Assembly: GCA_049642065.1 (NCBI GenBank)
Contig: JBAROK010000026.1
Location: 1,868-65,867, forward strand
Origin: Candidatus Omnitrophota bacterium
Lineage (GTDB): Bacteria > Omnitrophota > Gorgyraeia > Tantalellales > Tantalellaceae
Reading direction: 5' to 3'
Length of the DNA: 64,000 bases
In this document: piece by piece, positions 422-21,452 of the stretch
How the letters are laid out: each line of letters opens with the position of its first letter
Position numbering within the stretch: the first letter of the stretch is position 1
Program-made: the position numbers and the translations under genes
The notes under the pieces: generated by a model
What the model saw: the letters and a program-made list of their open reading frames with translations, nothing else
The model's database searches: none
What the model was told of the DNA's origin: nothing

Positions 422-428
422 GCTTAAT

Positions 429-1037: not shown

Positions 1038-2595
<1,558 letters not shown>

Positions 2596-2596
<1 letters not shown>

Positions 2597-3096: not shown

Positions 3097-4054
3097 CGTG
3101 AGATCTGAGGAAATCGTTAACTTGCCTTAACCCGGTTAATCCCTGCACCGCGCCATGTCCCGAACATATCAGAGCTGAGACAGCTGATGCGAATTCCAGA
3201 TTTCTCTTCATGTTTTTTAGAAATGCGTCTTTTCCGTCTGCCGAGTACCTGTAGATAAGTCCTGCAGTAAAACCGTCACCAGCACCGATAGTATCTTTTA
3301 TGCGTACCTTGAAAGCAGGTTGTGTTATCTTTTTCTTTCCGTTCCAATAGAACGCGCCTTTTGTTCCTAGGGTAACGATTATATCTCCCTTAAGATGTTT
3401 CTTAATCTTTTCAAGCGCCTTATTAAGGGTTTTTGCTTGTGTGATGTGCAAAGCATCATCTTCGCTGAGTTTCACAAGGTCGACATACGCAAGTATCTTT
3501 TTTATCCTTTGCCGTGCTTTGGCTTTATTCGGTATTTTGCTCTCACGCCAGTTCGGATCATATGTAATAAAAACGTTTCTTTTTTTAGCCAGCCGCAACC
3601 GTTTCATTACCGATCGGAAAAACACATCGCTATACGAGAAGAAAGAACTAGCATGAAACACCACCGCGGATTTAAAGGGGGTTTCGCAAAGATGTTGAGC
3701 CTTGTCTTTATGGGGAACTTCTTTCCCGTAAAAGATGTAAGAAGAGTTGCCTTTGGAATCTATGCTTGCGAGCGCAAGAGGTGCGTTTATGTTCTTATCC
3801 TTTATGATATGGCGGGTATCTATGCCTTTATCCTTGAGTATGCTTATAAGAGACTGGCTAAGAGAATCGGTTCCCAGTCGAGACATTAGAGCAACAGGCA
3901 GGTCGAGTAGGGCAAGGATCATTGAAGTATTTGTAGCAGATCCTCCGGGATAGGCATGCAGGGTTAAGGGCTTACCCTTAGAGGACTTTTTTGCCACAAG
4001 GTCAAAAAGCGTCTCTCCGCAACATATGATTTTTTTAGGTATATTCTTGCCCAT
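3086..4054 (-). CDS. PfkB-family carbohydrate kinase (ribokinase/fructokinase-like)
   Basis: N-terminal GETLFD and C-terminal GAGDGFTAGLIY (the PfkB anion-hole/ATP motif); 322 aa. Confidence 0.8.
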   Translation of the reverse strand: MGKNIPKKIICCGETLFDLVAKKSSKGKPLTLHAYPGGSATNTSMILALLDLPVALMSRLGTDSLSQSLISILKDKGIDTRHIIKDKNINAPLALASIDSKGNSSYIFYGKEVPHKDKAQHLCETPFKSAVVFHASSFFSYSDVFFRSVMKRLRLAKKRNVFITYDPNWRESKIPNKAKARQRIKKILAYVDLVKLSEDDALHITQAKTLNKALEKIKKHLKGDIIVTLGTKGAFYWNGKKKITQPAFKVRIKDTIGAGDGFTAGLIYRYSADGKDAFLKNMKRNLEFASAVSALICSGHGAVQGLTGLRQVNDFLRSHATR

Positions 4055-4288: not shown

Positions 4289-4381
4289 ATGGGAAACTTA
4301 TTTATCAAGCACAAAACATGGGTCAGGATAGTGGCAATAGGCGTAGTGTGCCTATTTCTTCTCAATGATTTTGCGTTCGCT
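4289..4381 (+). other. N-terminal signal peptide / membrane anchor of the giant protein (MGNLFIKHKTWVRIVAIGVVCLFLLNDFAFA|VED)
   Basis: A positively charged n-region, a hydrophobic core, and an AFA|V signal-peptidase-I-like site. Confidence 0.55.
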
Positions 4382-7300
4382 GTTGAGGATGTGGCACTGA
4401 GGAAAAATGCGTATACCCTTTCTCCGGTTTCCCGCATAAGGCCGATTATCACAATTGAGGATAATGACGGTGAGCTTACCATAGTCGAGGATGAACAGGA
4501 AAGATCCAGACTGATCGAAGGTTTTCAGGAAGACGCCGGTTTCATATACCTGAACACTCTCATAGCCCAGGTGCTTCAAAAGTTCGGCTCTAGGATAAGC
4601 GCCGAAGGGTTGAAAGAACTTATCTCCAAACATCTTTCCCACGTAGATTTCACTAATTTTAAATGGCAAGAGATTTACAAAGAAGGAGACGTCTTCTGCC
4701 TTCCATATGCTAGAAAAGATGATGGCCGTACACAGATATTAAAATTCTACCTTCCGAAAGACAAAGAAGTACAGTTTCCCCACGAGGTTGCTTTAAAGTT
4801 TGATGACGGTTCAACTGCCATATTAGAAGACCCGATGGCCGAGCTTCCGGAGCATCTTAAGAAAATCCGTGAGACCGCTGCCAGTATCGCAGGGCAAGGA
4901 ATATTGTCTGGGATGGAGCTAGCGGAAAGAGGGATTAAGGGGAGCGCCTCAGCGGACGTAAAGGATCTTTCAAAAGACGGCAGGCTTTCATGCAATATGA
5001 TCTTGGTGGAGAAGTCTGAGAGGGACAGGGAAGCTTTAGACAGAACACTTTATGATAAATACCAGGGAAGTTTTCAGGTAGTTGCCGAAAGAAGAGAAGA
5101 CGTAGAAGACAGAATCTTGCGTTGGCCGCAGAAAGAACTTGAAAGAATTCTTGGAGAAAGAGCTTCTCATAATTTTATCGTAATAATCGATCCGGCAAAA
5201 CTTCATCCTGTCAGCAGAGAAGATGTTAAGAGAGTGCCCCAGGGTGCCTATCGTTCATATATTGAGATGCGTTTCAGTTACGGGATAAGACCTGAAGCTT
5301 TCAAAGCCGTGCTAATACCTAAAGAACTTGTTCCCATTATAGGGAATGTCTTTCCGCCACATGTAAAGATCATTGAAGTAAACGGCACAAGGCAAAAAGA
5401 GTTGGAAGTGCTGAGGCAGGAACCGATGATGGTAGGAGAGCGTCGTATAGGGGAAGAATCTAGAACGCGTATGGTTAACATGGAATTGCCGGACTATGAA
5501 ACTGCCCTTAGCGATTATTTAAGAGGCATGTCTAGAGGAGATAAACTCCTGACCCATATCGTAAGGCTTACTGCTCCGTCTGATGTCGAGCCTGAAAAAT
5601 CCGAAAACGAAAAGAAACATATACAAGGAGATAGTTCTGGGGATGATGGGAATCCTTCAGCTAAAGGTTCGGGTGGCCCCGTAACGTTAATGAGTGTAGC
5701 CTTACCTGCCCTTGCTACAGCATTTTTAAACACAGGCGAAGCGATAGATCCACTGATACCTGTGCTTTTTGGGATTGTTGCATTAGTCGCGATACCTATA
5801 GCGCTTTATCATGCATACAGATTTTGTATCGGGATAATGACAGTGGCCTTAGGGGTCAGAGAAAGAATAGCGACTGAGTTTGTTTTGGGAGGCGGCCTTA
5901 TCGCTGCCGGGATCCATTTGGGGTTCGGTCAAGTTGTACCGTCTTTTACGGAATATATAGCATCACCACTTTTATGTAGTGCCGGGGCGTGCCTCATAAC
6001 TTTTGGTGCGTACGAACTCGTAAAAGGTCTCATCATAAAATGGTCAAAAAAACAGGAAGACACACCGAACTTGGGTTCAGTCAACTCTTATGATCTAGCG
6101 TCTCACGAACTTCTTCGGGAGCATCTTAGGTATGCGGGGCAGTTACAGGCATGGGGACAGGAAGTAGAAGGTACAGACTTTTCGCAATATTATCACGACA
6201 GGCTAACTGAAGCCGGGATAACTCTACCAGATGATCTTAATCTGATCGTAATAAAACATAATCATGGGCCCCAAGGATCGCTAGAACAGAAATTTCTTTA
6301 TTTTGAGCCTATGGCTGAAAAATGGATATTCTCTCATTCTGGAACGCGCAAAGGAACCGGTAAATTCGTATATCTTACTGAGGAATCTTTATATCTTCTT
6401 ACGCATAACGTAAGCAGACATCCTGATTGCAAAAAGTTTCTTGAAGAACTTTTAATGGAAGAATACGAACACGCTACCCTTAAGCTGGAAGGCCGCTGGG
6501 CACAGGATTCACATAAGCTTGGCGATTCGCATCTTAAGGAATATGTGGAAAAAAACTTTAAGCTAAGACAACTCAGGTTAGCGGAACCCGTAGCGACAGC
6601 TATAGCCGATAACTGGACAATATCCGGAAGCATAATAGAACTATTTATTGATTTTCACCTTAAGGAAAAAGTTCCGCTAGATATTGAAGCGAGGTTTCAT
6701 AGAGAAGCAACTGAAGCAACAGACCTGGGGGGAATAGCCCGCATAATGGCTAGCAGCGCCAAGAGTCCGGACCACGCGAGAGAAAGAGTGCTTGAAGATG
6801 TACAAGTGATGGTTAGGTATAACTTGGCACAGGCGCGCAAGACAATAGATTTTATGGACGAAATGGCGGCAAAAGTTTCGCCTGAAATAAGAGAAGGACA
6901 AGAGTTTAAGAATCTCGTTGCTTTCTTTGTGGAGAATTTGAGTGACGCAGAGCTATACAAGGAAATCATAGACGATGAGCACATTCAATATGACGAGATA
7001 AATATAGGTTATCTGGCAAGGGATACGATCAGGTTCCTTAAGTCCCTGAAACAGTTCGAGCACACCGATATTGTTTTTAAGAATGATACGCCGGAGACGA
7101 CCATTTTGGGTGAGCCATATCTTATACGCTGGGAATTTATCGGTGCAGTGTTGAGGGAGGTTGATAATCTGCCAAGAGGAAGCGGCAAGATAGAAATCGG
7201 ATATCGGCAAGATTCATCAAGGATAGGGATCGAATTCATAGCGGAAAACCCGGCAGAACGCGCGAGGTGGATCGAAAGCGTAAAAGATAAATGCGCTGAT

Positions 7301-10300
7301 CTGAACGGTGCTTTTTATCGCGAGCTTAGGAAAGAATATAGAAGGGATGCGGGATCATGTTTTGATGCTTCTTACGTTCTTTCCCGAGTGCTGGCGGAAC
7401 ATCTTGGTCTTCCGATCGATGGTGATTCTCCCGATAGGATAGAGATAGAGGTGGGAGAGTACCCGTCTACGAGGCTTCTTAAGCCTTCTATTCACGCTTG
7501 GGTAATTGTGTACAGAAAAGGGGAGAGAACTCTTCTTATCGACCCGACCAGAGGGCAGTATGACAAGGGACAGTATAACAAAATATTTGTTGGAGAGTAT
7601 GCGAAGGCGATGGAAGAGCTGGAGCTAATAGGTCCGGATGAGCTGAGAGGAAAAGATGACTATAGGGATATAAACGATATCTTATTCAGCCATACGAGCA
7701 AGGAACCCCTGGACCTGATGTCAAGCCGCGTGTTGGAGAATATGGAGCTAGTCAGCATACTCAGAAACAGGTTGGATCTCAGTATAGGAAACGCAAGTCT
7801 TGGTCTGACCGAGCGGTTTGATTTTCTGGTGGGTGCTAATAAAGAGAAAATAATCAAGGAAACTGCTTTTACTGTTGCGGAGATTAAAAGAAGTACAGGC
7901 AAAAATACTAGAATGGGAGTACGCGTGGGCTACAAGGATGAAAGCACGGGTACGCAGTTTGACCTTGTCCTGGATATTGCTTATTACGGGGACGTCGAAA
8001 AAGTCGAAATAGTCATAAAAGTGTCAACCTCAGATATCTCAAAAGTGTTCCTCCTCCCGGAGCCCAATACTGTTGATATGGTCTTTCTTGGCGGAGGTAA
8101 AGCTTCGCTAAAACCAGCAGCGAAAGAGGCACATCCCGTTAGGCGAGGGGGAGAAAAAAACATACGAACTGACGAAGAAGCCAATGAGATCATACCAGGA
8201 ATTTTCAAAGCGCTAGGTATTGAATCGGAAAAACTGGAATGGCGCGAAGAGGATGGGTTGGTAGTAGCCGACATGCCGGTAGAGATGCTTAAAGAGCAGG
8301 AGGTAAAATTAGCGTTTGATCTTCCCGAGAAGGCACCTGTTGCAGGAGAGCTATTGATAGCGTGTCACGGAAGCTCACCGATGTTTTTATGCTTAAGAGG
8401 TAAAAAGCAGCTCGTGAAGATCATCAATTTAATGCCCTATTACGAGGATCTTCCCGAAGAAACCGCATTACGCATTATGGGCAGACTGGACGCTAAATTC
8501 CCAATAATGGAATTCGTGGGACACTCGCCATATTCATATGCGGTATTCAATGAGTGGGGAGGGTTGATCGAAATAACATCCGGATATCCGAACACAAAAA
8601 AATACCGTATTCCGATACATGTTACGCGCATACCCATACTCCCAGGGGTGTACGGAGGATCCCACTCATCGAGCGAGATAAGTGCCCGCGCTACAGTCGA
8701 ATATGCTAAACCAGGCATGAAAGTGCTTGTTGTCGGAACCGGCAAAGGTCTTGAGGCTCGAATAGCGGCGCTGCGGGGTGCTACTGTAGATGCCGTGGAC
8801 ATAAGAGAACTTGCAGTCGCGAACACTAAAATAACCTGTTATCAAGCGGGCGTGTCGGATAAAGTGAACGCATTCTGCAACGATCTTTTTAACGGGCTCG
8901 GGAAATATGATCTTATTATCTTTAACATGCCGCATGCCTCCGATGAACCGCTGGTTCACGATCTAGTTACAAGTAAAGACCGTAATACCAGTGATTTCGG
9001 AGGAGCATTGCTTGACAGGGTAGCCGATGAGATAGCAAAACACATGGCGCTGGGAGGTAAAGCCGTTCTTATCAATAGTGAATCTTTTATTACGGAAAAG
9101 AAACTGAAAGAAAGAACAGGGTTTAGCGTTAGATCGGACTTCTTTGATGTTGCCGGAGGATCAAAAGCGTACATTATAGAGAGGCCCGATTCAGATAGGG
9201 AAAAATCTGCCGGGATTTTACGTCTTCCTTCGCCGCGCGGGCATGTTCCCGATATACAGGGAAACATTGAAAGGGCTAAAAGGAATATGTGCCAGCCTTT
9301 AGAGCAGGACAATTCTACTATAGTTAGTGAAAAAGATATCGACTGGACGGCGATAAACGCGTACATGCGCCAGAAGAAACTGAAGGTATACCCCAAAAAA
9401 GACAGGCCTGTCGTACATGTAGTGGACATACAAGGCGAGAACGGAAAAGACCTTTTCGGGTTTCCGCTTGTACCGGGCCATGAGGAGTTTGAGGGAATTG
9501 TACCGGTCATATCGTACAGGTCCTTAAAGGACGACCGGTTGCACGTGTTCATGACAGCCGGCCTTTATGACGACTATCTTGAAGTATCCCACATGAGAGC
9601 GACTAGAAGCGCGAAAACGCTTCGTATTGTCCGGCTCGCCGAAATACTTGATCACGAGATCTTTGAACATTCCGAGGAAGCTCTTGCTGAGCCCGAAGAA
9701 GAAAGGCACCATCTTGCTGCGCTCCGCGCCGGGCATTTTATCCCGCGTGGCCAGAAAATAAGCGCGTTCCACAAATGGGTCTTGGACAATATGGCGCTTA
9801 CAGAAAACGGACGCGAACATATAATGCTTATGCTTGACGAAGAGAGGCCAGAGCCGGAGAGGTCCAGCCAGCGTAAATACGAAAGGAATTTTTATAATTA
9901 CGCCAAGAGCGTGTTACCAAGGGAAAAATATTCAGGCAAAGTGCAGCGTGCCGCTCATCATCTTTTGAGAGTATACGGGCACGGAGATGTACACGCTTTT
10001 GAAGAATTGTGCGTAAAAGTCGGAGTAGACCCCAAAGCGCTTAGTAAAGCGATCGAGCAAGAGGAGAAAAAACACGTGTTGAACGCCGTTGAAGGGTTTA
10101 AGCCGGATATAGTTATTACGGAGACGAGTGAGACGAATGTGGAGATAGATAACACAAAAGCCATTGTAAGAAAGCTGCTCAAGAACCAATACGCTGATTT
10201 TGTATGGAACGCGCTGATGAAAGCCAAACACGGGCCGGAATGTATGACGGTGCTGTTGGAGGTACTTGCTAAACACGGTAAAGATGTCTTCTGCAGCGAG

Positions 10301-13300
10301 AAGATGGAGCCTGTTATAGAGTATGCGTTCAGGGAACTAAAACGGTACGATAAAGAGAAATACGAGAGAGTAAGCGATAAGGCCGGTACAGTACTTGAGG
10401 TAGTTTCAGATTATATGGATCAGCTGGCGATACTTGCCAGTTATCTTCTTGCCCAGGAAAGGTTGGGAGGGCTTATAGCGGACTTTACGATAATCGACGG
10501 CCAGATATACCAAGAAAAGGTGACCCCTCTTACAGTTTATCTTCAGCAGCTTATTAGCGGAACGGGCCCCTTCGAAGACCTTAAAGATAAATCTTACGAG
10601 AACAAAGTAAGGATAGGGTGGGACGTTCTGGAAAAATATATCGAATGTATTCAAGAGATAGCTAAAAGGGGAGCAGTAATATGTAACGTTAAGTTAACTA
10701 ATTTTGGTATAAGAGAGAACGGTGAAGTGGTTCTTTTTGACCTGGGAAGGTCGTCTTTGGGGTGGCATGACAGAGGAGAGATAAACCAGGAGTTCGCGCT
10801 TACCCTGCTTGGTACGAAAATAGCAATGGATGCCAGGCGACTTGAGAACTTGAATGCCGAAGGTGTTTTTGAAGAAACGGGCATACGTCATGATTTTGGA
10901 GATGATGAGCAAGCCCAAAAACTTCAAACGGAACTAGCGCGGATATGGACAGAACTAATCTCCGCAAGACCCATTGCGGAGGGTGACGAGGAGGCCGTGA
11001 AGATACTGGATGGCAGGGAGTTTGTTGAGAGGGTCAAGACCATTCTCCCAAAAACACCGGAAGAAGCTGAACCCGAATACAGGAGGATAACGTTCATCCC
11101 AAACGAAATAGCGGGGGAAGAGATCTTACAGGTAATAATGAAGGAGATAGATGACAGTAAAACAGAAACAACGTCCTCGCTTCCACAAGGATCCATACAT
11201 GGCGTTTTCACATATCTATGTGAAAATAATGTTATAAATCCTGAAACTAGTTTACCGGGCGATCTGATAGCTAATGGTCTTGACCGCCAGTTTGGAACGA
11301 TAAAGTATGACCTGAGAGCTTTATTTTACCATTTGCATCTTATTGAAAAAGCGGATGTCAAGGAGACCGGCAAGAGCGCCAGATACTACGTACCGGAAAG
11401 GGTAAAGAAGAAAGCCGCCAGGATATTACCTGTTCTTACCCGTTTTGTTGGAGAAGACCGTGTGCCCAAAGTAACACTTCTTGATAAAGTTTACGAAGAA
11501 GAGATAGCCCCCATTCTGCAAGCCCTGCCCCAAACAAGATGCAGACCCAAGCCCATTGAAGGAAAAGCGCCGATAATCCTTATCCTGGGATGGCCCGGAT
11601 CAGGTAAGACTACCCTTGGAAGATCTTTGAGCCAGGAGCTGGGAGTGCCTCATATCTCAATAGGTACATTGATAGCGCAAGAAAGGGAACGCAACCCTGA
11701 TTTTGATCCGGCGCTTCTTAACAGTAACGACTACGTCTATGGTGAGCTTCTTGAGAATGCGCTTGGGGAGTGCGATCTTACAGGAGGTGTTATTATTGAC
11801 AATTCTCCACGTACACCTGATGCGATAAACGCATTAAAAGAAATACTCGAAGCCAAAGGTCTCAAGCTCGGGGCGATAATAGAGCTTACTATTAGCAGGA
11901 GAACTGCCGGTTCACGTATGGTAAAAAGGTCCAGAGAAGAGGGAAGAAACTGGGACAGGAGCAGGAAAGTAAGGCGCAAAAAAATGGACATGTACCGGAA
12001 GATGGCGATGCCGCAGCTTGATCAGTGGCGCAAGAAAGGACTTGTATGTTCGCTGGACGCGGAAGTGGAACCGTGGATCCTGGAAGCCAGAGCGCTTGGA
12101 AGGTTGAATGAGAAAGGCGTGGTTTCGCTGCATCCGCAAAGTGACGAACAGACACATAAGCCACTCACTCCGATTAAAGAAGAGGGCTCCATAGAGTTAG
12201 CTGGCAAGAAATTCCGTTTAGCGACTATAGCAATAAGTGATACCTATAAATCACTTGAAGTGTTTGATGAAGAGACCGGCAAGCGTGTGGGTTTCTTTTA
12301 CGCTATGGTGGGAGACGAAACTAGTCCTCATTGTGCTGATGTTTGCGGAATAAGGGGAATACACCTCAAGCCCCAATACAGGGGGCTAGGATTATCAGCG
12401 AAGATGATGGAAATATTTTTCCAGAAGTTTAGAGAAGTTAATCTGCTTCTTGATGAGATAATGAACCCCATGCTAATTCACATGGCAAAAGAACATTTTG
12501 GGTTTTTGCCTGTTAACCCGGTCCCGGAGAACAGGGTGTACATAAACCTTAAGCAGGGAAGATCCAGCAAGCCAAAGATATGGATACCTGAAGATTTTCT
12601 GAGGCGTTCATACAGTATGGGTCCACCGGAAACTATGCGCAAAGAGTTCGAAGTGCTTCAGGAAGAGCCGGACAATCTAGACGATTTTGAAAAGGTATAT
12701 TTCCGTACTGCGTACAAACGGGTTTACCATCCAGGACTTAGGCTGGAAGGTGTAGATGCTGTTATTACTGATTTTGATGGCGTGGATAGAGACCACAGCA
12801 TGGATGTCGTGAGCGAAGAAACCATTGCGGCAAAGAGAGGACTATCAAGAAGAGGTGTTCATAACATAACGATTACAGGACTCGAACAGGGCAAGCTTTT
12901 CAGGCGTTTCGGCGGGGCAAAAAGAGCCGGGAAGATAAGTACCCGAGATGATTATATCGCTCTTAGCTGTTCCGGGGCTGTTGCTAACCAGGTAACAAAA
13001 GATGGCCAGATAAAACCGCTTGCAGGGTTTAAGGGTGTTTCGTTGGGAGACAGAAAGACAAAACAGGATATTGCAAGGATAGCTAGAAAGGCTTTACTTA
13101 TAGCTTGCCGAGAAGCGGGCATACCACAGGAAGCTGCCGATAATGTCGAAGAATCGATCAGGGAAGAGCAGGTATCTCTTATTGCGAGGGGCGATGAAAG
13201 AATTAGTGCGATACGTTACAGAGTAGCGGAGATTATCCGTAAAGAGCTAAAAAAACAAGGCTTTCCAAAGAATATTGAAGTTTCAGCTTCATTCGTGGCA

Positions 13301-14776
13301 GTGGACATTACCAGTACGTCCAAGGGCAAGGCCGCGATCCAGATGATTAAGCTTTTGAAGCTTACGAAAGTAGTACTAATAGGTGATTCCGTTGGTACTG
13401 AAGAGAAGCCCGGCAATGATAGGAGCTTACTTGTTTTGACTAAAAAAGATATCCGGGCCGCCGGGATAGACTGGGAAGTTGAGCTCATACCTGTTTATGT
13501 AGGACGAGAGGAGAATTATACTCTTCCGGAGAACGTTATTATCTCTCCTCAGGGCGAAAGAGAAATCGATCCTGCACTCAACCTGTACAACGCTGTTATA
13601 AGGGCACAGGACGAGGTAGCGCTACGCGAACTAGCAAAAGAAAAGACCATGAGAGTATGGGGATCGCTTGATAAGAAGAGATTGACCAAATGGTTACAGG
13701 AATGGAAGAAGATATATAAGATCCAAGGTAAGATAGATATAAAACGCCTTTTCAAGGACAGGGTCGGCAGGACACTGTCTTTCAGTATCGGTGAGCACAA
13801 TTGTACGGTTACGTTCGATGTAACAAAAAGCATGAATACCGGCAAAGTGCGGCTGACGATAATGGGCATGCATCTTGACGGAAAACTCAGGGAAAAGCGG
13901 CTTATGTCCATGTTGACCCTGTATCTTATTCAGCCTTATAAGTGCGATGAAGTTTATCACGACAGGATGAACGAGAAATTCGGAGAAAAATTCTTCAAAG
14001 GCTTGAAAAAGCTTGGTATTTACAGCGATATTACATATTCTGAAAAACAGAAAGGTAAATACAGGAACGGGCTGGGGATAATAGATAAAAAGCGCGTCAA
14101 AGAAATCACACATAACACAGAAGCTCTTAAGAAGTTTATCTCAAAAGACGAGGATAGCCGAGGCAAGGAAGGTTTATCTAATGAGGTAAAGGGCAGTCAG
14201 GAGGCAGCTGGCAGATTCGTTGACGAGATAATTATAAGAGCTTTTGAAGCGCAAAAAGAAGGGCAGGATATTATTATTGGTGTAGATACCAGCTGGATAC
14301 CTGATATGCAGGGAGTGCAGCTAGTGTTAAATGAACTATCCCGCATTTCAAGACGTAAAGGGTTTAAGAATATCCATTTTATAAGAGGCAGGGGAGCCGA
14401 ACTGGCGGAGCTTATTTCAAAAAGAGTAGAGAAGACAGGAACCGCACTTTCAAACGTTATAGTGCTTGCTGAAGAACATGTTTTGCAGGCGGATCAGTTT
14501 AATGGTCTGAGAAGTACTGAAGATGAAGAAAAAGCTTTTCTGGTGGGGGTTGATCCAAAGCATCTTACCGACAAAAGTTATACTAGAATACTTGAGATGC
14601 TGACCTTGGCGGTTAAGCTCGCTTTCAGCGAGCAGGAAAAAGCTGAAATTTTTGGAGTATCGGCTACCCGTATTGGTCCAAGAACGTGGATATTTATTCC
14701 CGAGGCGTGTCCGATGGACTTTGAGGAAAGAAAAGCTATTTATAAAGCCCAGATGCAGGCGCTAATCGCAGCCTAA
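4289..14776 (+). CDS. giant multidomain membrane-anchored protein (3,495 aa); motifs are detailed in the sub-features
   Basis: Single uninterrupted frame of 10,488 nt, with a promoter upstream and a hairpin terminator downstream. Multiple independent catalytic motifs occur in the same frame. All ORF-track antisense ORFs across this span are short. Confidence 0.85.
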   Translation: MGNLFIKHKTWVRIVAIGVVCLFLLNDFAFAVEDVALRKNAYTLSPVSRIRPIITIEDNDGELTIVEDEQERSRLIEGFQEDAGFIYLNTLIAQVLQKFGSRISAEGLKELISKHLSHVDFTNFKWQEIYKEGDVFCLPYARKDDGRTQILKFYLPKDKEVQFPHEVALKFDDGSTAILEDPMAELPEHLKKIRETAASIAGQGILSGMELAERGIKGSASADVKDLSKDGRLSCNMILVEKSERDREALDRTLYDKYQGSFQVVAERREDVEDRILRWPQKELERILGERASHNFIVIIDPAKLHPVSREDVKRVPQGAYRSYIEMRFSYGIRPEAFKAVLIPKELVPIIGNVFPPHVKIIEVNGTRQKELEVLRQEPMMVGERRIGEESRTRMVNMELPDYETALSDYLRGMSRGDKLLTHIVRLTAPSDVEPEKSENEKKHIQGDSSGDDGNPSAKGSGGPVTLMSVALPALATAFLNTGEAIDPLIPVLFGIVALVAIPIALYHAYRFCIGIMTVALGVRERIATEFVLGGGLIAAGIHLGFGQVVPSFTEYIASPLLCSAGACLITFGAYELVKGLIIKWSKKQEDTPNLGSVNSYDLASHELLREHLRYAGQLQAWGQEVEGTDFSQYYHDRLTEAGITLPDDLNLIVIKHNHGPQGSLEQKFLYFEPMAEKWIFSHSGTRKGTGKFVYLTEESLYLLTHNVSRHPDCKKFLEELLMEEYEHATLKLEGRWAQDSHKLGDSHLKEYVEKNFKLRQLRLAEPVATAIADNWTISGSIIELFIDFHLKEKVPLDIEARFHREATEATDLGGIARIMASSAKSPDHARERVLEDVQVMVRYNLAQARKTIDFMDEMAAKVSPEIREGQEFKNLVAFFVENLSDAELYKEIIDDEHIQYDEINIGYLARDTIRFLKSLKQFEHTDIVFKNDTPETTILGEPYLIRWEFIGAVLREVDNLPRGSGKIEIGYRQDSSRIGIEFIAENPAERARWIESVKDKCADLNGAFYRELRKEYRRDAGSCFDASYVLSRVLAEHLGLPIDGDSPDRIEIEVGEYPSTRLLKPSIHAWVIVYRKGERTLLIDPTRGQYDKGQYNKIFVGEYAKAMEELELIGPDELRGKDDYRDINDILFSHTSKEPLDLMSSRVLENMELVSILRNRLDLSIGNASLGLTERFDFLVGANKEKIIKETAFTVAEIKRSTGKNTRMGVRVGYKDESTGTQFDLVLDIAYYGDVEKVEIVIKVSTSDISKVFLLPEPNTVDMVFLGGGKASLKPAAKEAHPVRRGGEKNIRTDEEANEIIPGIFKALGIESEKLEWREEDGLVVADMPVEMLKEQEVKLAFDLPEKAPVAGELLIACHGSSPMFLCLRGKKQLVKIINLMPYYEDLPEETALRIMGRLDAKFPIMEFVGHSPYSYAVFNEWGGLIEITSGYPNTKKYRIPIHVTRIPILPGVYGGSHSSSEISARATVEYAKPGMKVLVVGTGKGLEARIAALRGATVDAVDIRELAVANTKITCYQAGVSDKVNAFCNDLFNGLGKYDLIIFNMPHASDEPLVHDLVTSKDRNTSDFGGALLDRVADEIAKHMALGGKAVLINSESFITEKKLKERTGFSVRSDFFDVAGGSKAYIIERPDSDREKSAGILRLPSPRGHVPDIQGNIERAKRNMCQPLEQDNSTIVSEKDIDWTAINAYMRQKKLKVYPKKDRPVVHVVDIQGENGKDLFGFPLVPGHEEFEGIVPVISYRSLKDDRLHVFMTAGLYDDYLEVSHMRATRSAKTLRIVRLAEILDHEIFEHSEEALAEPEEERHHLAALRAGHFIPRGQKISAFHKWVLDNMALTENGREHIMLMLDEERPEPERSSQRKYERNFYNYAKSVLPREKYSGKVQRAAHHLLRVYGHGDVHAFEELCVKVGVDPKALSKAIEQEEKKHVLNAVEGFKPDIVITETSETNVEIDNTKAIVRKLLKNQYADFVWNALMKAKHGPECMTVLLEVLAKHGKDVFCSEKMEPVIEYAFRELKRYDKEKYERVSDKAGTVLEVVSDYMDQLAILASYLLAQERLGGLIADFTIIDGQIYQEKVTPLTVYLQQLISGTGPFEDLKDKSYENKVRIGWDVLEKYIECIQEIAKRGAVICNVKLTNFGIRENGEVVLFDLGRSSLGWHDRGEINQEFALTLLGTKIAMDARRLENLNAEGVFEETGIRHDFGDDEQAQKLQTELARIWTELISARPIAEGDEEAVKILDGREFVERVKTILPKTPEEAEPEYRRITFIPNEIAGEEILQVIMKEIDDSKTETTSSLPQGSIHGVFTYLCENNVINPETSLPGDLIANGLDRQFGTIKYDLRALFYHLHLIEKADVKETGKSARYYVPERVKKKAARILPVLTRFVGEDRVPKVTLLDKVYEEEIAPILQALPQTRCRPKPIEGKAPIILILGWPGSGKTTLGRSLSQELGVPHISIGTLIAQERERNPDFDPALLNSNDYVYGELLENALGECDLTGGVIIDNSPRTPDAINALKEILEAKGLKLGAIIELTISRRTAGSRMVKRSREEGRNWDRSRKVRRKKMDMYRKMAMPQLDQWRKKGLVCSLDAEVEPWILEARALGRLNEKGVVSLHPQSDEQTHKPLTPIKEEGSIELAGKKFRLATIAISDTYKSLEVFDEETGKRVGFFYAMVGDETSPHCADVCGIRGIHLKPQYRGLGLSAKMMEIFFQKFREVNLLLDEIMNPMLIHMAKEHFGFLPVNPVPENRVYINLKQGRSSKPKIWIPEDFLRRSYSMGPPETMRKEFEVLQEEPDNLDDFEKVYFRTAYKRVYHPGLRLEGVDAVITDFDGVDRDHSMDVVSEETIAAKRGLSRRGVHNITITGLEQGKLFRRFGGAKRAGKISTRDDYIALSCSGAVANQVTKDGQIKPLAGFKGVSLGDRKTKQDIARIARKALLIACREAGIPQEAADNVEESIREEQVSLIARGDERISAIRYRVAEIIRKELKKQGFPKNIEVSASFVAVDITSTSKGKAAIQMIKLLKLTKVVLIGDSVGTEEKPGNDRSLLVLTKKDIRAAGIDWEVELIPVYVGREENYTLPENVIISPQGEREIDPALNLYNAVIRAQDEVALRELAKEKTMRVWGSLDKKRLTKWLQEWKKIYKIQGKIDIKRLFKDRVGRTLSFSIGEHNCTVTFDVTKSMNTGKVRLTIMGMHLDGKLREKRLMSMLTLYLIQPYKCDEVYHDRMNEKFGEKFFKGLKKLGIYSDITYSEKQKGKYRNGLGIIDKKRVKEITHNTEALKKFISKDEDSRGKEGLSNEVKGSQEAAGRFVDEIIIRAFEAQKEGQDIIIGVDTSWIPDMQGVQLVLNELSRISRRKGFKNIHFIRGRGAELAELISKRVEKTGTALSNVIVLAEEHVLQADQFNGLRSTEDEEKAFLVGVDPKHLTDKSYTRILEMLTLAVKLAFSEQEKAEIFGVSATRIGPRTWIFIPEACPMDFEERKAIYKAQMQALIAA
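5675..6050 (+). other. internal block of 4-5 predicted transmembrane helices (aa ~463-587) in the giant protein
   Basis: Consecutive hydrophobic stretches: LMSVALPALATAFL, LIPVLFGIVALVAIPIALY, FVLGGGLIAAGIHLGFG, IASPLLCSAGACLITFGAY. Confidence 0.6.
7300..7600 (+). other. transglutaminase-like cysteine-protease core (Cys1024-His1069-Asp1085) in the giant protein
   Basis: GSCFDASYVLSRVLAEHLGLP (Cys codon 7358-7360), SIHAWVIVY (His codon 7493-7495) and LLIDPTRG (Asp codon 7541-7543). This matches the C...HAW...DPT pattern of the transglutaminase-like superfamily. Confidence 0.6.
8700..9120 (+). other. class I SAM-dependent methyltransferase-like domain with an N-M-P-H motif IV (amino-group MTase type) in the giant protein
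   Basis: Motif I VLVVGTGKG at 8723-8749; acidic beta-2 end AVDI; motif IV DLIIFNMPH with NMPH at 8924-8935, where N6-adenine and protein Gln/Lys methyltransferases have (D/N)PP(Y/F). Confidence 0.55.
10660..10760 (+). other. protein-kinase-like catalytic-loop/DFG-like signature (possibly degenerate) in the giant protein
   Basis: VICNVKLTNFG aligns to HRDLKPxN with Asn in the Asp position. It is followed 10 aa later by VVLFDLGRS (DLG 10739-10747). Confidence 0.35.
11560..11960 (+). other. adenylate-kinase-like (NMP kinase) P-loop domain in the giant protein
   Basis: Walker A ILILGWPGSGKTT (11588-11614); GVIIDNSPRTPDAINAL resembles the adenylate kinase GFLLDGFPRT segment; ISRRTAGSRMVKR resembles the LID arginines. 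Confidence 0.6.
12200..12520 (+). other. GNAT-type N-acetyltransferase-like domain in the giant protein
   Basis: VGFFYAMVGDE...VCGIRGIHLKPQYRGLGLSAKMMEIF matches GNAT motif A (R/Q-x-x-G-x-G/A). Confidence 0.5.
12746..13470 (+). other. HAD-superfamily phosphatase-like domain (Cof/SPP type) in the giant protein
   Basis: Motif I VITDFDGVD (Asp 12770, Asp 12776), a conserved Lys region SKGKAAIQ, and motif IV VVLIGDSVGTEEKPGND (Asp 13385, Asp 13418). Confidence 0.5.
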
Positions 14777-14845: not shown

Positions 14846-14920
14846 TGGTTGCGGGGGACGGAATCGAACCGCCGACCTTGAGGTTATGAGCCTCACGAGC
14901 TACCCCTGCTCCACCCCGCG
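14846..14920 (-). tRNA. tRNA-Met (anticodon CAT), initiator-like
   Basis: The reverse complement reads CGCGGGGTGGAGCAGGGGTAGCTCGTGAGGCTCATAACCTCAAGGTCGGCGGTTCGATTCCGTCCCCCGCAACCA. It has a cloverleaf, a CAT anticodon, three G-C pairs in the anticodon stem, an unpaired C1 as in fMet tRNAs, and an encoded CCA. Confidence 0.9.
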
Positions 14921-15050
14921 TCAATAACTATTTAGAGTGAGTGATTATAGCAAATAAAACTAACACAGGCAAGGAGTTTTTGACAAAAACACAAGAGCCT
15001 ATCGGTACAGCGGTTTAATACCTATATATTGTGTAGTTACCCCATAATAA

Positions 15051-15079
15051 TTGACAGTAAGTATTATATATGTTATAAA
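15051..15079 (+). promoter_or_regulatory. sigma70-like promoter (TTGACA, 17-nt spacer, TATAAA) upstream of purB
   Basis: Hexamers read directly, 55 nt upstream of the purB ATG. Confidence 0.45.
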
Positions 15080-15133
15080 AAATATCTCTGATTCAAGTAA
15101 TCACTAATTTTCCCTAAAATCAGGAGAGAAAAT

Positions 15134-16426
15134 ATGATAGAAAGATACTCACGCCCGGAAATGGCCAGAATATGGACGGATGAAAATAAGTTTCGCAAAA
15201 TGCTCGAGGTAGAGATACTTGCCTGTGAAGCTTTCGCGAAATTAGGTGAAATTCCCAAAGATGCGGTCAAAGTCATCAGGAAAAAAGCCGATATTGACGT
15301 TCAGCGGATAAAAGAGATAGAAGAAGTTACCAATCACGACGTGGTCGCGTTCATAAAGAACGTATCTGAGAACGTGGGTGAGGAAGCTAAATATTTTCAC
15401 TACGGGCTCACTTCCAGCGATATACTTGATACGGCTCTTTCGGTGATGATGGTGGAAGCTATAGATATTATCGAAAAAAGCCTTGCTGAATTCGTCGAAG
15501 TGCTCAAAAAGAAAGCTCTCGAGTATAAGAAGACACCGATGATGGGTCGTTCCCACGGTGTGCACGCAGAACCGATATCATTCGGGTTGAAACTGGCGGT
15601 TTATTACAAAGAGATGCAGAGGAACCTTGAACGGGTTCGGGATGCAAGAGAGACCATCGCTGTAGGTCAAATGTCCGGTTCTGTAGGAACTTTCGCGAAT
15701 GTTGACCCTTATGTGGAAGAGTATGTCTGTAAGAAACTGGGGCTTAAACCCGCGGGTGTTTCCAGTCAGATCATCCAGCGTGATCGTCACGCATATTACC
15801 TGAACGTACTAGCTATTGTAGGAGCGTCATTGGAAAAGATAGCTCTTGAAATAAGGGGTCTTCAGAAAACAGAAATAGGCGAGGTACAAGAATACTTTGC
15901 TAAGGGCCAAACCGGTTCATCAAGCATGCCCCATAAAAAGAACCCTATCATATGCGAACGTATAGTCGGTATGGCAAGGCTTTTGAGGGGGAATGCGACA
16001 GCGGCACTTGAGAATGTGGCTCTCTGGCATGAGCGCGATATCTCACATTCTTCGGTGGAACGTGTGATAATACCGGATTCCACGATACTCTTGGATTATA
16101 TGCTCGCAAAAGCCAAACCTCTCATTGAGAAACTGGTAGTTAACGAGGAAAAGATGCTGGAGAATATTGGTGCTACCAAAGGGCTGGTCCATTCTCAGCA
16201 CATCATGCTCGAGCTTATCAAACGAGGTGCTACTCGCATGAAAGCTTACGAGATAGTCCAGAAAGCGGCCCTTGAAGCTTACAACAGCGGGAAGGATTTC
16301 CAAAGCCTCATGCTTGAGGATGCTAGGATGAACGAGTACATGTCGCGGGAAGAAATAGAAAACTGTTTCGACTTAGAGTATCATCTTCGTCAGATCGATA
16401 AAATTTTCAAGAACATAGGTCTGTAA
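15134..16426 (+). CDS. purB: adenylosuccinate lyase
   Basis: N-terminus MIERYSRPEMARIW; 430 aa; fumarase/ASL family SSxMPxKxNP signature GSSSMPHKKNP. Confidence 0.95.
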   Translation: MIERYSRPEMARIWTDENKFRKMLEVEILACEAFAKLGEIPKDAVKVIRKKADIDVQRIKEIEEVTNHDVVAFIKNVSENVGEEAKYFHYGLTSSDILDTALSVMMVEAIDIIEKSLAEFVEVLKKKALEYKKTPMMGRSHGVHAEPISFGLKLAVYYKEMQRNLERVRDARETIAVGQMSGSVGTFANVDPYVEEYVCKKLGLKPAGVSSQIIQRDRHAYYLNVLAIVGASLEKIALEIRGLQKTEIGEVQEYFAKGQTGSSSMPHKKNPIICERIVGMARLLRGNATAALENVALWHERDISHSSVERVIIPDSTILLDYMLAKAKPLIEKLVVNEEKMLENIGATKGLVHSQHIMLELIKRGATRMKAYEIVQKAALEAYNSGKDFQSLMLEDARMNEYMSREEIENCFDLEYHLRQIDKIFKNIGL

Positions 16427-16430
16427 ACTT

Positions 16431-17435
16431 ATGGCAAAACGAAAAGTCACTTATAAGCAAGCTGGTGTTGACATTGACCGGGCCAACCGTCTTGTAGGCA
16501 CCATAAAAAACCTTGTCAAATCAACGAATGTTCCGGGATGTGTGGGTGCTATCGGTGGGTTTGGTGGGCTGTTTGACACCTCGAAGTCTGGAATAAAAGA
16601 TCCGCTGTTAGTATCCTCAACGGACGGGGTGGGCACGAAACTTAAAGTAGCCCAAGTCTCCGGCGTACATGACACTATCGGGATTGATCTAGTAGCTATG
16701 TGCGTGAACGATATAATTTGTCTTGGCGCAAAACCTCTATTCTTCCTTGACTATTTTTCTACAGGTAAGCTGGAAGACGAGCAGCTTACTGCGATTATAA
16801 AAGGCGTGGTCAAAGGATGTCGAGATGCCGGGTGTGCTCTTTTAGGAGGCGAGACGGCCGAGATGCCGGGAGTTTATCCAAAAGGCGAGTACGACCTTGC
16901 CGGGTTCTGTGTAGGGGCAGTTGACAGGAAAAAAGTAATAGATGGAAGGCGCATCAAAGCCGGTGACGTTATACTCGGGGTAGCTTCAAGCGGCCTACAT
17001 TCGAACGGATATTCACTTGCTAGAAAGGTTTTCACTAAAAGACAGCTTAAAAAGCATTACAAGATGCTTCTCAAACCCACAACCATTTACGTTAAACCCA
17101 TTCTAGAGGTCTGTAAAAAAACGAAGGTAAAAGGCATAGTCAATATTACGGGTGGCGGGTTTTACGATAATATACCGAGAGTGTTACCTGCTGGAGTAAA
17201 AGCAGTCATAGAAAAGGGAAGCTGGAAAGCTCCCAAGGTATACGATCTTATCAGGGAAATCGCCAATATAAGAGAAAAAGAGCTTTACAGGACTTTTAAT
17301 ATGGGAATAGGCATGACGCTGATGCTTTCCGAGGCGGAGGCGCAAAAAGCTATAAAGATCCTGAAAAAACATAAACTAAAAAGCTGGATCATAGGTGACG
17401 TCATTAAAGGCAAAGGGGACGTAGAAATAATTTAA
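16431..17435 (+). CDS. purM: phosphoribosylformylglycinamidine cyclo-ligase (AIR synthetase)
   Basis: MAKRKVTYKQAGVDID N-terminus; PurM-like GGFGGLF and DGVGTK motifs. Confidence 0.93.
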   Translation: MAKRKVTYKQAGVDIDRANRLVGTIKNLVKSTNVPGCVGAIGGFGGLFDTSKSGIKDPLLVSSTDGVGTKLKVAQVSGVHDTIGIDLVAMCVNDIICLGAKPLFFLDYFSTGKLEDEQLTAIIKGVVKGCRDAGCALLGGETAEMPGVYPKGEYDLAGFCVGAVDRKKVIDGRRIKAGDVILGVASSGLHSNGYSLARKVFTKRQLKKHYKMLLKPTTIYVKPILEVCKKTKVKGIVNITGGGFYDNIPRVLPAGVKAVIEKGSWKAPKVYDLIREIANIREKELYRTFNMGIGMTLMLSEAEAQKAIKILKKHKLKSWIIGDVIKGKGDVEII

Positions 17436-17454
17436 GTGGTGGAGGATAAATTCG

Positions 17455-18732
17455 ATGAATGTACTAGTTATCGGTTCAGGTGGAAGGGAGCATGCTCTTT
17501 GTTGGAAGTTGAAGCAAAGCCCGCTAGTGAACGACTTGTATTGTGCGCCTGGTAACGGAGGCACGGCACTGGATGCGGTTAACGTTGATGTTAACGTTTT
17601 CGAGCACCAAGAGGTTATAGAGTTCTGCAAGGAAAAGAACATAGACCTGGTCGTTGTAGGTCCGGAAGCGCCTTTGGCGGTAGGGATAACTGACGACTTG
17701 GAAAAAGAAGGTATAAATGTTTTCGGACCTTCTTATGCAGCCGCAAGAATGGAGTCCAGCAAGATATTCTCCAAGGAGCTTATGGGCCGGTATAACATAC
17801 CCACAGCTGCTTTTCGCATATTCGATGATTTTGATAAGGCCGAAGAGTATATAAGGTCAAAAGGCGCTCCGATAGTGGTCAAGGCATACGGTCTTGCTGC
17901 CGGCAAGGGTGTTGTAGTGACCGATAACGTCGAAGAGGCGGTTGCCGCAGCTAAAGATATGCTTGTTGAGAAAAAATTTGATGCAGCTGGCAGCAAGATC
18001 ATAGTAGAAGAATGCCTTTTTGGTGAAGAAGCTTCCATATTGGTTTTAACTGATGGAGAGAATATAATACCTCTTGCGACCAGTCAGGACCATAAGCGCG
18101 CTTATGACGGGGATAGTGGGCCCAATACCGGTGGCATGGGCGCGTATTCGCCGGCACCTGTTATAGACGATGCGCTTTTTGAAAAGATCATAGAGACGAT
18201 CATACGGCCTACCATAGAAGCTTTAGGCAAAGAAGACATCGTTTACAAAGGGGTGCTTTATGCCGGTCTTATGATGACCGAAGATGGTCCGAAAGTGCTC
18301 GAGTATAATGTCCGTTTTGGTGACCCGGAAACGCAGGTCATACTTCCGCGCATGAGATCAGATCTTGCAGATTTGTTAATGGCGACCGCAAAAGGCGAAC
18401 TTTCGGGGAAGACGGCTGAATGGGACCAGGACGAATGTGTTTGTGTGGTACTCGCTGCAGGTGGATATCCGGCAAGCTACGAAAAAGGGAAAAAGATAAC
18501 GGGGCTTGAGGAGGCGGCAGAAGAAGGTGCAGTGGTCTTTCATGCAGGCACCCGCGCGGAAGGCGATGATATAGTTACTTCGGGCGGCAGGGTGCTTAAC
18601 GTGACAGGCAAAGGCCATGGCATAAAAGAAGCAGTAGCCAACACGTATAAGGCCGCAGGAAAAATACATTTTGACGGTATGCATTACCGTAAAGATATCG
18701 GATATAAAGCTATCGCGCGCGTAAACGCATAA
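17455..18732 (+). CDS. purD: phosphoribosylamine--glycine ligase
   Basis: MNVLVIGSGGREHALCWKL N-terminus; ATP-grasp motifs; 425 aa. Confidence 0.95.
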   Translation: MNVLVIGSGGREHALCWKLKQSPLVNDLYCAPGNGGTALDAVNVDVNVFEHQEVIEFCKEKNIDLVVVGPEAPLAVGITDDLEKEGINVFGPSYAAARMESSKIFSKELMGRYNIPTAAFRIFDDFDKAEEYIRSKGAPIVVKAYGLAAGKGVVVTDNVEEAVAAAKDMLVEKKFDAAGSKIIVEECLFGEEASILVLTDGENIIPLATSQDHKRAYDGDSGPNTGGMGAYSPAPVIDDALFEKIIETIIRPTIEALGKEDIVYKGVLYAGLMMTEDGPKVLEYNVRFGDPETQVILPRMRSDLADLLMATAKGELSGKTAEWDQDECVCVVLAAGGYPASYEKGKKITGLEEAAEEGAVVFHAGTRAEGDDIVTSGGRVLNVTGKGHGIKEAVANTYKAAGKIHFDGMHYRKDIGYKAIARVNA

Positions 18733-18753
18733 CTTGTAAAAGAGAGGAAATAC

Positions 18754-19248
18754 ATGAAAAAGAAACCGTTGGTAAGCATAATAATGGGAAGCGATTCGGA
18801 TCTTCCCGTAATGAGCGAAGCGTCAGCAGTTCTTAAAAAGTTCGGTATAGCCCATGAAGTGAAGATACTTTCGGCGCATCGTTCACCTGACAAGACTTCC
18901 AGTTTTGCGAAGTCCGCAAGGAAAAGAGGCGTAAAAGTTATCATCGCAGGAGCCGGCGGAGCAGCTCATCTGGCGGGTGTTGTAGCAGCCCACACTACGC
19001 TTCCTGTTATCGGTGTTCCCATGGAGAGCAAGCTTGATGGTTTGGACTCACTTCTTTCTACGGTACAGATGCCTTCGGGTGTGCCCGTTGCTACTGTTTC
19101 GATCGGTAAAGCCGGAGCCGTCAACGCGGGGATACTTGCAGCAGAGATCATAGGCGTAAACAGCAGCGCCATAAACAAAAAAATACAACAGCACAAAAAG
19201 GAACTTGTGCGCAAGATAGACGCAAAGAACCGCAAAATAAAAGGATGA
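18754..19248 (+). CDS. purE: N5-carboxyaminoimidazole ribonucleotide mutase
   Basis: [12 protein letters not shown] and the SAHRSP motif typical of PurE. Confidence 0.93.
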
Positions 19249-19709
19249 TGGAAGACGTGCAGAAAATACTTTTTGTGTGCACTGGCAACAGCTGTCGAAG
19301 TATAATGGCTGAAGCCTATATGAAAAAACGCGCACAGGAAGAAAGTTTATCCCTCGAAGTGAAATCCGCGGGGACGCTTGGTATTAACGACATGCCGCCT
19401 ACGCAACAGGCCCTTAAAGTTCTTGCTGATGAAGGTATCGATACAGAAGGATATCAATCGAAAGCTCTTTCGAAAGAGCTGATAGACTGGGCGGATCTTA
19501 TACTGGTCATGGAACCCTTACATAAGAGCAGGATACTGGAAGACGTGCCGGAAGCTGAAGGCAAAGTACGATATCTCGCGGAATTCAATCCCGAAAAGAA
19601 CGACGTTATGATCCCAGATCCCATAGGAAGACCCGTAGCGTTCTATAAGACATCTTTCGGGCTTATACGTTACTCGATAGAGGAGCTGATAAAATGGCTA
19701 AAAAAATAG
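19245..19709 (+). CDS. low-molecular-weight protein (Tyr/Arg) phosphatase, YwlE-like
   Basis: P-loop [16 protein letters not shown] (CX5R). It sits directly before rpiB and glyA, as in the Bacillus ywlE-ywlF(rpiB)-glyA arrangement. Confidence 0.8.
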
Positions 19710-20158: not shown

Positions 20159-20179
20159 AAGCACGAAAGGAAACATGAA

Positions 20180-21451: not shown

Positions 21452-21452
21452 A

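Follow-up and report, generated by a model that had tools for sequence, protein, structure and literature searches.

An adenylate-kinase-type module with a hyper-basic LID in a long modular protein of Candidatus Omnitrophota

The 64,000-nucleotide (nt) stretch of DNA analyzed here (the window; Candidatus Omnitrophota bacterium, contig JBAROK010000026.1) contains a long open reading frame (ORF, 4289..14776 on the forward strand) for a protein of 3,495 amino acids (aa), and we found that nt 11561–12103 encode a genuine adenylate-kinase-type domain whose resemblance to this family is far beyond chance. The initial annotation had recognized an adenylate-kinase-like P-loop domain in this region and had read the basic stretch that follows as a classical bipartite nuclear localization signal (NLS), which, if real, would hint at action inside a eukaryotic host cell. 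All motif strings quoted for this assignment exist in frame 1 of the ORF (nt 11576–11983), and the kinase assignment holds, but the supposed NLS is the arginine-rich catalytic LID of the enzyme, and in this respect the finding is largely ordinary. In our view, the domain is probably an ATP-binding phosphotransferase module of the adenylate-kinase fold with the basic stretch as its LID, and most likely it would act as an ATP-dependent phosphotransferase with a remodeled acceptor site. It appears to be one cargo module of an apparently membrane-anchored modular protein. What is new is a small Omnitrophota-specific kinase variant whose acceptor side is rewritten and whose LID is hyper-cationic, which could point to a non-canonical substrate, and as an interchangeable module between conserved protein ends the kinase bears on how Omnitrophota build very long proteins.

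Kinase fold and active-site residues

The Pfam family ADK (PF00406) matched aa 2432–2584 with 56.0 bits against a gathering cut-off of 26.8 (E 6.6e-15, model positions 1–150 of 151). The P-loop-kinase families AAA_17, AAA_33, and AAA_18 passed their cut-offs as well, with ADK scoring best; AAA_33 (39.5 bits, cut-off 27) scored lower and covered less of the domain, and ADK was the sole full-length family match. The top NCBIfam models were all adenylate kinases, led by NF001381 with 84.9 bits. In phmmer searches of the PDB, the short-type adenylate kinase of Mycobacterium tuberculosis (Adk; 2CDN/1P4S) was the best match (E 3e-15 to 5e-15), followed by some 90 further adenylate and UMP/CMP kinases. 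An AlphaFold2 model, for which the domain was aligned with 89 ordinary adenylate kinases as input, reached a pLDDT (predicted local distance difference test score) of 85.7 and a pTM (predicted template modeling score) of 0.82, and in a Foldseek comparison of this model with the PDB the top 50 matches were all adenylate or UMP/CMP kinases, with template modeling (TM) scores of 0.82 for 2CDN and 0.86 for 1UKE. From the single sequence, AlphaFold reached a pLDDT of only 47.

The same 90-sequence alignment was used to count residues per column. G15, P17, G18, G20, K21, T23, G40, R89, R124, R128, and R134 (domain numbering) are invariant throughout. The Walker A pattern of the family, GxPGxGK(G/T)T with the catalytic lysine, reads GWPGSGKTT and lies in ILILGWPGSGKTT, the very string in which it had been proposed, with all invariant positions kept. 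For the other active-site positions we use the numbering of the Escherichia coli enzyme, mapped from established family knowledge, with R2543, R2547, and R2553 as the equivalents of R119, R123, and R156. The domain keeps K13 (K2440), D84 (D2504), R88 (R2508), R119, R123, R156, and D159 (D2556), each of which is present in 88–89 of the 89 ordinary adenylate kinases. R88 is the arginine of the 'SPRT' motif within GVIIDNSPRTPDAINAL, and the arginine assigned there to the side of the nucleoside monophosphate (NMP) is thus correct. Among the arginines of ISRRTAGSRMVKR that had been likened to LID arginines, R2543 and R2547 do correspond to R119 and R123, whereas the others are not conserved.

Other positions are replaced in the window domain. 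It carries I at T31 (T in 79 of the 89 ordinary enzymes), T at D33 (D in 75/89), A at R36 (R in 89/89), N at G85 (G in 89/89), S at F86 (F in 56/89), and A at Q92 (Q in 87/89), and the AMP-site set T31/R36/G85/Q92 of adenylate kinases reads I, A, N, A. The LID motif GRxDD reads GRNWD; its arginine and second aspartate are kept, and the first aspartate (D158, D in 88/89) has become W2555. At the R167 position, where 88 of 89 ordinary enzymes have R, the window has K2565, and the NMP-binding segment is 7 residues shorter than in ordinary adenylate kinases. At the sequence level, the ATP side is conserved and the acceptor side is rewritten.

The basic stretch as LID

The supposed NLS, KRSREEGRNWDRSRKVRRKK, lies inside this kinase domain. 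In the phmmer alignment to M. tuberculosis Adk, the segment 'reeGRnwDrsrkvrrkkMdmYrkmamPqLdqwr' pairs with the LID region of Adk. Of the two NLS 'boxes', the first (KR) includes the R123 equivalent and the second (RRKK) covers the R167 position (K2565), and the LID motif GRNWD (GRxDD in the family) falls within the 'spacer'. The AlphaFold2 model has this segment in helices 118–132, 135–138, and 140–163 with pLDDT values of 77–87 for the block, and the basic segment is thereby predicted to belong to the folded core and not to a flexible or disordered linker. In every adenylate kinase, arginines of the LID region clamp phosphates during transfer.

The NLS consensus was formulated as a regular expression, (K/R)(K/R)-X10-12-(at least 3 K/R in 5), and its occurrences were compared with those in 500 residue shuffles of the protein. 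It is satisfied by KR-SREEGRNWDR-SRKVR at aa 2546, and it occurs 3 times in the protein compared with 2.9 ± 1.9 times in the shuffles, which is chance level. It is also found in 1 of 43 ordinary short-LID adenylate kinases (P0192), at the homologous place, and KRGETSGRVDDNEETIKKR of the cytosolic human AK1 presumably fits the expression at the homologous place too. The case may serve as a cautionary example, as a resemblance to the bipartite NLS consensus is intrinsic to short-LID adenylate kinases.

Relatives of the domain were obtained by an exhaustive HMMER scan of 1.84 billion representatives with the C-terminal 1,200 aa as query. The scan returned three close copies of the kinase domain in long proteins, P0004 (3,866 aa), P0007 (4,074 aa), and P0018 (2,620 aa), of which P0004 and P0007 are named Candidatus Omnitrophota by their sources, and the four copies, including that of the window, are mutually 41–52% identical. 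The NLS pattern is absent from P0004 and sits at other offsets in P0007 and P0018; in these sequences, it is the catalytic arginine positions that are conserved, without a two-box signal. The positive charge behaves differently from the spacing. The most basic 30-aa stretch of the protein, with 14 K/R, lies within aa 2536–2572, and the 46-aa LID region has 17 K/R in the window and 14–16 in P0004, P0007, and P0018; the 43 ordinary short-LID adenylate kinases average 8.7 and reach at most 12. All four copies have basic residues at domain positions 127, 140, and 162 (H at 127 in P0004), and ordinary enzymes mostly have G/A at 127 and E/P at 140. Of the basic patch, the homologs hence share the composition (14–17 K/R in the four copies) but not the NLS-like spacing, and the excess LID charge is a conserved property of these four sequences. 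A charge swap between a basic LID and an acidic NMP-binding segment was also considered and dropped, as the window segment is acidic but that of P0004 is basic (judged by eye).

The copies further define the variant. R-x-W-[D/E], YVY, and SPRT are invariant in all four together with all ATP-side residues, including the tryptophan of the LID motif, and the R167 position is R in the three orthologues. R36 is replaced in the window, P0004, and P0018, each time with an arginine three residues later (R2466 in the window protein), and P0007 keeps R36 ('GDLIRR') and lacks the later arginine, a pattern that, in four sequences, is suggestive of a shifted phosphate contact. Q92 is replaced in all three orthologues. 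When metagenomes were scanned with our profile A1, the matches listed comprised distant P-loop kinases (22–38% identity, partial lengths) and no subfamily member, and a word-index search with the same profile returned ordinary adenylate kinases.

The modular protein, its relatives, and its genomic setting

The relatives indicate that the kinase domain is an exchangeable part of its protein. P0004 is collinear with the window protein over aa 489–3350 at 51% identity. P0005 is collinear for aa 1–1756 and 2635–3495 and cleanly lacks aa ~1757–2634, a cassette that comprises the kinase-like region, a module that we term M1, and the adenylate-kinase domain. In P0007 and P0018, the kinase domain occurs in different module contexts. 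The first ~145–190 aa (window 4289–4860), which comprise the signal-like segment and a small domain, and the last ~200 aa are common to P0005, P0006, P0008, and P0010, the interiors of which differ, and the family thus looks like an architecture of conserved ends with exchangeable cargo.

M1, directly upstream of the kinase domain, recurs with up to 3 copies per protein in other long proteins (P0006, P0026, P0010) and has the consensus GSIxGVFxYLCxNNIT...TIKYDLRALxYHLxLIEK...ARYYVPE...ILPILxRFxGKDLRP. Its similarity to winged-helix domains is weak and below every cut-off (HTH_11 in 4 of 12 members; PDB 2d1h, E 0.023). A conserved unit of winged helix-turn-helix and kinase, which would imply work on nucleic acids, was not accepted as a general arrangement: in P0007, M1 lies far from the kinase, and in P0018 it is missing. 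The conserved C-terminal module (CT) was present in 111 of the 152 best matches of the exhaustive search, in host proteins of 112 to 6,375 aa, and it ends at most 15 residues from the protein C-terminus in 108 of these 111 cases. It is characterized by the motifs IIIGxDTSWIP, LSNVVVLG, YIRLLEMLT, IFIPxAEPxD, and a terminal AA. We found no Pfam family and no sequence relative in the PDB for CT, and two studies of Omnitrophota giant proteins (10.64898/2026.06.07.730766; 10.1101/2023.11.21.568195), checked for the word 'C-terminal', yielded no mention of it. CT could be a sorting, anchoring, or assembly domain.

Table 1. Features of the 3,495-aa protein, with positions in the window.
Feature	Position	Strand	Basis or remark
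Whole ORF, 3,495 aa	4289..14776	+	contains the kinase domain
Signal-peptide-like hydrophobic N-terminus, MGNLFIKHKTW-VRIVAIGVVCLFLLNDFAFA↓VE	4289..4387	+	hydropathy; cleavage site putative
Cluster of hydrophobic, probably transmembrane segments, aa ~466–580, then KWSKKQ	5684..6028	+	hydropathy; topology putative
S-adenosylmethionine (SAM) methyltransferase-like module (HemK/PrmC/MTS type), aa 1452–1613	8642..9127	+	Pfam/NCBIfam matches, both below cut-off (MTS E 3e-4, NF011529 E 1.7e-14)
Possible protein-kinase-like module, aa 2094–2152	10568–10744		FAM69/PIP49 kinase-domain match, E 0.11 (weak)
Module M1, ~115-aa unit directly upstream of the kinase domain, aa 2298–2415	11180..11533	+	recurs in other long proteins
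Adenylate-kinase-fold domain (NMP-kinase family, short-LID type), aa 2425–2605	11561..12103	+	profile, PDB, alignment, model
Walker A/P-loop GWPGSGKTT in ILILGWPGSGKTT, aa 2430–2442	11576..11614	+	K2440 equivalent to E. coli K13
NMP-binding segment, remodeled and shortened, HISIGTLIAQERER...DYVYGELL, including the subfamily motif YVY	11651..11752	+	
GVIIDNSPRTPDAINAL, aa 2500–2516	11786..11836	+	D2504 = D84, R2508 = R88; G85→N, F86→S, Q92→A
ISRRTAGSRMVKR, aa 2535–2547	11891–11929	+	holds R2543, R2547
KRSREEGRNWDRSRKVRRKK, aa 2546–2565	11924–11983	+	'bipartite NLS' of the initial annotation
LID and flanking helices	11915..11983	+	R2543, R2547, G-R2553-N-W2555-D2556, K2565; extra conserved basic positions 2546, 2559
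GNAT-like module, aa 2634–2806	12188..12706	+	Acetyltransf_1 E 0.011, below cut-off; recurrence in relatives
Tentative HAD-IIB-like phosphatase module, aa 2807–3120	12707..13648	+	weak
Module X, aa 3121–3294	13649..14170	+	marginal similarity to the C-terminal domain of M. tuberculosis isocitrate lyase 2
Conserved C-terminal module (CT), ~200 aa, aa 3295–3495	14171..14773	+	no known family

By hydropathy, the signal-like segment of the N-terminus spans aa 10–33 and ends with AFA↓VE, and the hydrophobic cluster further downstream suggests a membrane anchor (Table 1). The region of aa 2048–2318 is conserved in P0007 and P0008, and within it, at aa 2094–2152, '...NVKLTNFGI...VLFDLG' resembles a catalytic-loop/DFG pattern, so a protein-kinase-like module may precede M1. 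The HAD-IIB-like module has the invariant motifs DxDGV ... K ... GDxxGTxxxPGND, and its top PDB matches are Cof-type phosphatases (E 0.017–0.6). In module X, aa 3128–3286 (window 13670–14146) matched isocitrate lyase 2/AceAb (PDB 8g8k, E 4.6e-4; also 6edw). SecA-DEAD, C39, and dockerin domains had no Pfam match at E<1 in the 3,495-aa protein.

The ORF product is identical to NCBI MGB2601467.1 on GCA_049642105.1, which is named 'MAG: nucleoside monophosphate kinase [Candidatus Omnitrophota bacterium]' (MAG, metagenome-assembled genome), and a JGI fragment of it is named "adenylate kinase"; the kinase annotation has thus already been assigned automatically by public pipelines. Housekeeping genes surround the long gene (window 312–4054 and 14846–22384). 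They encode a purN-like formyltransferase, enolase (eno), DivIC, an HPP-family protein, PfkB and tRNA-Met (both on the minus strand), purB, purM, purD, purE, a low-molecular-weight phosphotyrosine phosphatase, rpiB, glyA, a dCMP/cytidine deaminase, and nrdR. The upstream order formyltransferase–enolase–HPP is also found in the Omnitrophota MAG Bin_214 (L002), which gave the one orthologue in our scan of GTDB genomes; its contig stops at residue ~2301, ahead of the kinase domain. We found no second adenylate kinase within the 64-kb window, and Rfam and tRNA scans of the window returned only four tRNAs, none of them relevant to the question of kinase or NLS.

Assessment of the readings and comparison with known systems

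Nuclear targeting is not supported by our analysis. The idea that a classical bipartite NLS takes the protein, or a processed fragment of it, into the nucleus of a eukaryotic host can draw on the literal consensus, KR-X10/11-basic cluster, and on the location in the most basic region of the protein, and a bacterial nuclear signal, if true, would imply an unexpected effector aimed at eukaryotes in a phylum whose prey is thought to be prokaryotic. However, the pattern count does not exceed expectation (3 observed, 2.9 ± 1.9 expected), the boxes fall on positions that are catalytic in the kinase (R123, R156, and R167), the pattern is missing from P0004 and displaced in P0007 and P0018, the segment is modeled as helical and confidently folded, human AK1, a cytosolic enzyme, presumably fits the same expression at the same place, and the protein has a signal-like N-terminus and a hydrophobic cluster that is typical of a membrane anchor. 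As to the host, ATP/ADP translocases are typical of intracellular parasites of eukaryotes. Because some Omnitrophota classes carry such translocases (PMC10066038), a eukaryotic host is formally possible for the phylum, which is a point in favor of an NLS. Against it, the only cultured member of the Omnitrophota preys on archaea, isotope data of three other families are consistent with obligate bacterial predators (PMC10066038; 10.64898/2026.06.07.730766), and no eukaryotic host is documented for the phylum. There is also no sign in our analysis of a delivery of the membrane-anchored protein into a eukaryote. We therefore hold an NLS to be extremely improbable, and the proposed action in a eukaryotic host is likewise not supported, given a bacterium of the Omnitrophota, the predation on prokaryotes known in this phylum, and the membrane-anchor features of the protein.

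The hyper-basic LID could also be an adaptation to a polyanion (polyphosphate, the ends of nucleic acids, or a phosphorylated glycan, for example), which would make the domain a binding module or a kinase of macromolecules or polyanions rather than a small-NMP kinase. The initial annotation had likewise offered a nucleic-acid-binding patch as an equal alternative to the NLS, and the excess basicity, conserved in composition in the four copies, would be compatible with a patch for anions or nucleic acids. The AAA_33 family includes polynucleotide-kinase-like proteins. Its match above cut-off (39.5 vs. 27 bits), the 14–17 K/R of the four copies relative to 8.7 on average and 12 at most in ordinary enzymes, the conserved extra basic positions 127, 140, and 162, the replaced AMP-site residues, and a weakly winged-helix-like module directly upstream in the window and P0004 would agree with such a function, but ADK scores best and is the only family matched over its full length, the structural neighbors are all NMP kinases, M1 is apart from the kinase domain in P0007 and was not detected in P0018, and its winged-helix similarity remains below every cut-off. 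We regard this explanation as unlikely. An equally small chance is given to the related proposal that the variant with R-x-W-[D/E], YVY, and the hyper-basic LID is an undescribed adenylate-kinase-fold branch that is confined to Omnitrophota long proteins and acts on a larger anionic acceptor. If true, candidate acceptors would be polyphosphate, the end of a polynucleotide, or a phosphorylated intermediate of the cell envelope or of glycans, not a free nucleoside monophosphate, and this would be a new substrate class for the fold, inside a membrane-anchored enzyme assembly line. Conversely, the module might be a conventional AMP:ATP adenylate kinase that buffers ATP/ADP for the neighboring modules, by analogy with the tethered adenylate kinases of eukaryotic cilia. 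The best family and structure matches are indeed adenylate kinases, large multi-ADK proteins exist (AK9, PDB 9d2f; 9fqr_Xf), genes for purine nucleotides lie around it, among them the AMP-producing purB, and P0007 retains 'GDLIRR' with the R36 equivalent. Nevertheless, R36 (89/89), G85 (89/89), and Q92 (87/89) are replaced in the window, R36 also in P0004 and P0018 and Q92 in the three orthologues, the NMP-binding segment is 7 residues shorter, the equivalog cut-offs are missed by about 100 bits, and P0005 lacks the whole cassette, so that the rest of the protein can do without the module; a conventional kinase is in our estimate quite unlikely. Just as improbable to us is a degenerate, non-catalytic adenylate-kinase fold that is kept as an ATP sensor or structural spacer. 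Several near-invariant family residues are lost and the module content is shuffled and dispensable among the relatives, as would be expected for it, but copies with an overall identity of only 41–52% have kept the residues for binding ATP and stabilizing the transferred phosphate, which argues for selection on chemistry.

We therefore favor an active phosphotransferase module, and its function may be envisaged as follows. The module would still bind ATP and transfer phosphate, and the LID arginines would close over ATP and the acceptor phosphates during phosphoryl transfer. The acceptor would be bound differently from AMP in canonical adenylate kinases, and the additional K/R may provide a larger electrostatic clamp for an acceptor or partner that is anionic. 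The module would probably work on the cytoplasmic face, because ATP is needed, because the neighboring modules probably need SAM and acetyl-CoA, and because a K-rich stretch follows the last hydrophobic segment.

Some points weigh against this phosphotransferase interpretation. The NCBIfam equivalog cut-offs were missed (NF001381, 84.9 vs. 187 bits; TIGR01351, 60.3 vs. 168 bits). With R36, G85, and Q92 replaced, the domain could instead serve as a structural or ATP-binding module without catalysis. The subfamily sample consists of four sequences, and the fold agreement of the model is not independent evidence because ordinary adenylate kinases made up the input alignment; the sequence statistics for family membership hold without the model. 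With respect to topology, 10.64898/2026.06.07.730766 reports a predicted outward orientation for the metabolic modules of some long proteins. Finally, the catalytic arginines alone do not account for the function of the excess LID charge.

Among known enzymes, M. tuberculosis Adk (2CDN/1P4S) is the closest counterpart. The fold (TM score of the model 0.82), the helix order, and the length class are the same, as are the short LID without zinc or a β-hairpin insert and the P-loop and the equivalents of D84, R88, R119, R123, R156, and D159. Identity is about 29–34%, and the window domain differs by its shorter NMP-binding segment (7 residues) and by the exchanges R36→A, G85→N, F86→S, Q92→A, D158→W, and R167→K. 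Furthermore, Adk is a free-standing enzyme, whereas the window domain resides inside a 3,495-aa protein and has twice as many K/R in its LID region. The best superpositions are those with eukaryotic short-LID NMP kinases (AK1; UMP/CMP kinase 1UKE, 1Z83), with a TM score of 0.86 to 1UKE, but the NCBIfam model UMP_CMP_kin_fam scored 59 bits against a cut-off of 208. The acceptor-site residues of the window domain differ from the adenylate-kinase set and presumably also from the UMP/CMP-kinase set. The AAA_33/polynucleotide-kinase group belongs to the same P-loop-kinase superfamily, but none of its members is among the top 50 structural neighbors. Eukaryotic multi-adenylate-kinase proteins (AK9, 9D2F; the 1,910-residue chain 9FQR_Xf; fungal and protist proteins such as P0035) also carry ADK domains in very long chains. 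They have several tandem kinase domains, whereas the window protein has a single one among unrelated enzyme-like modules, and, unlike them, it is bacterial and has a signal-like N-terminus and a hydrophobic anchor.

In its architecture, the window protein finds its counterparts within its own phylum. According to 10.64898/2026.06.07.730766 and 10.1101/2023.11.21.568195, long and giant Omnitrophota proteins contain many divergent modules of the methyltransferase, GNAT, HAD, and kinase types, and classes termed 'Archaeovorin'-type and 'multi-enzyme metabolic cluster' are distinguished among the giants; neither source mentions an adenylate-kinase module. The former source adds that 94% of the Omnitrophota long proteins are equipped with transmembrane helices or with a signal peptide. 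With 3,495 aa, and with no SecA-DEAD, C39, or dockerin domain detected, the window protein differs from these giants and is far shorter than the thresholds applied to these collections, which were at least 10 kaa (thousand amino acids) in the 2026 catalogue and at least 30 kaa in the 2023 study. It nonetheless shares with the Omnitrophota giant proteins the phylum, the anchoring by signal or transmembrane segments, and the shuffling of methyltransferase, GNAT, HAD, and kinase modules, which diverge strongly from their free-standing homologues.

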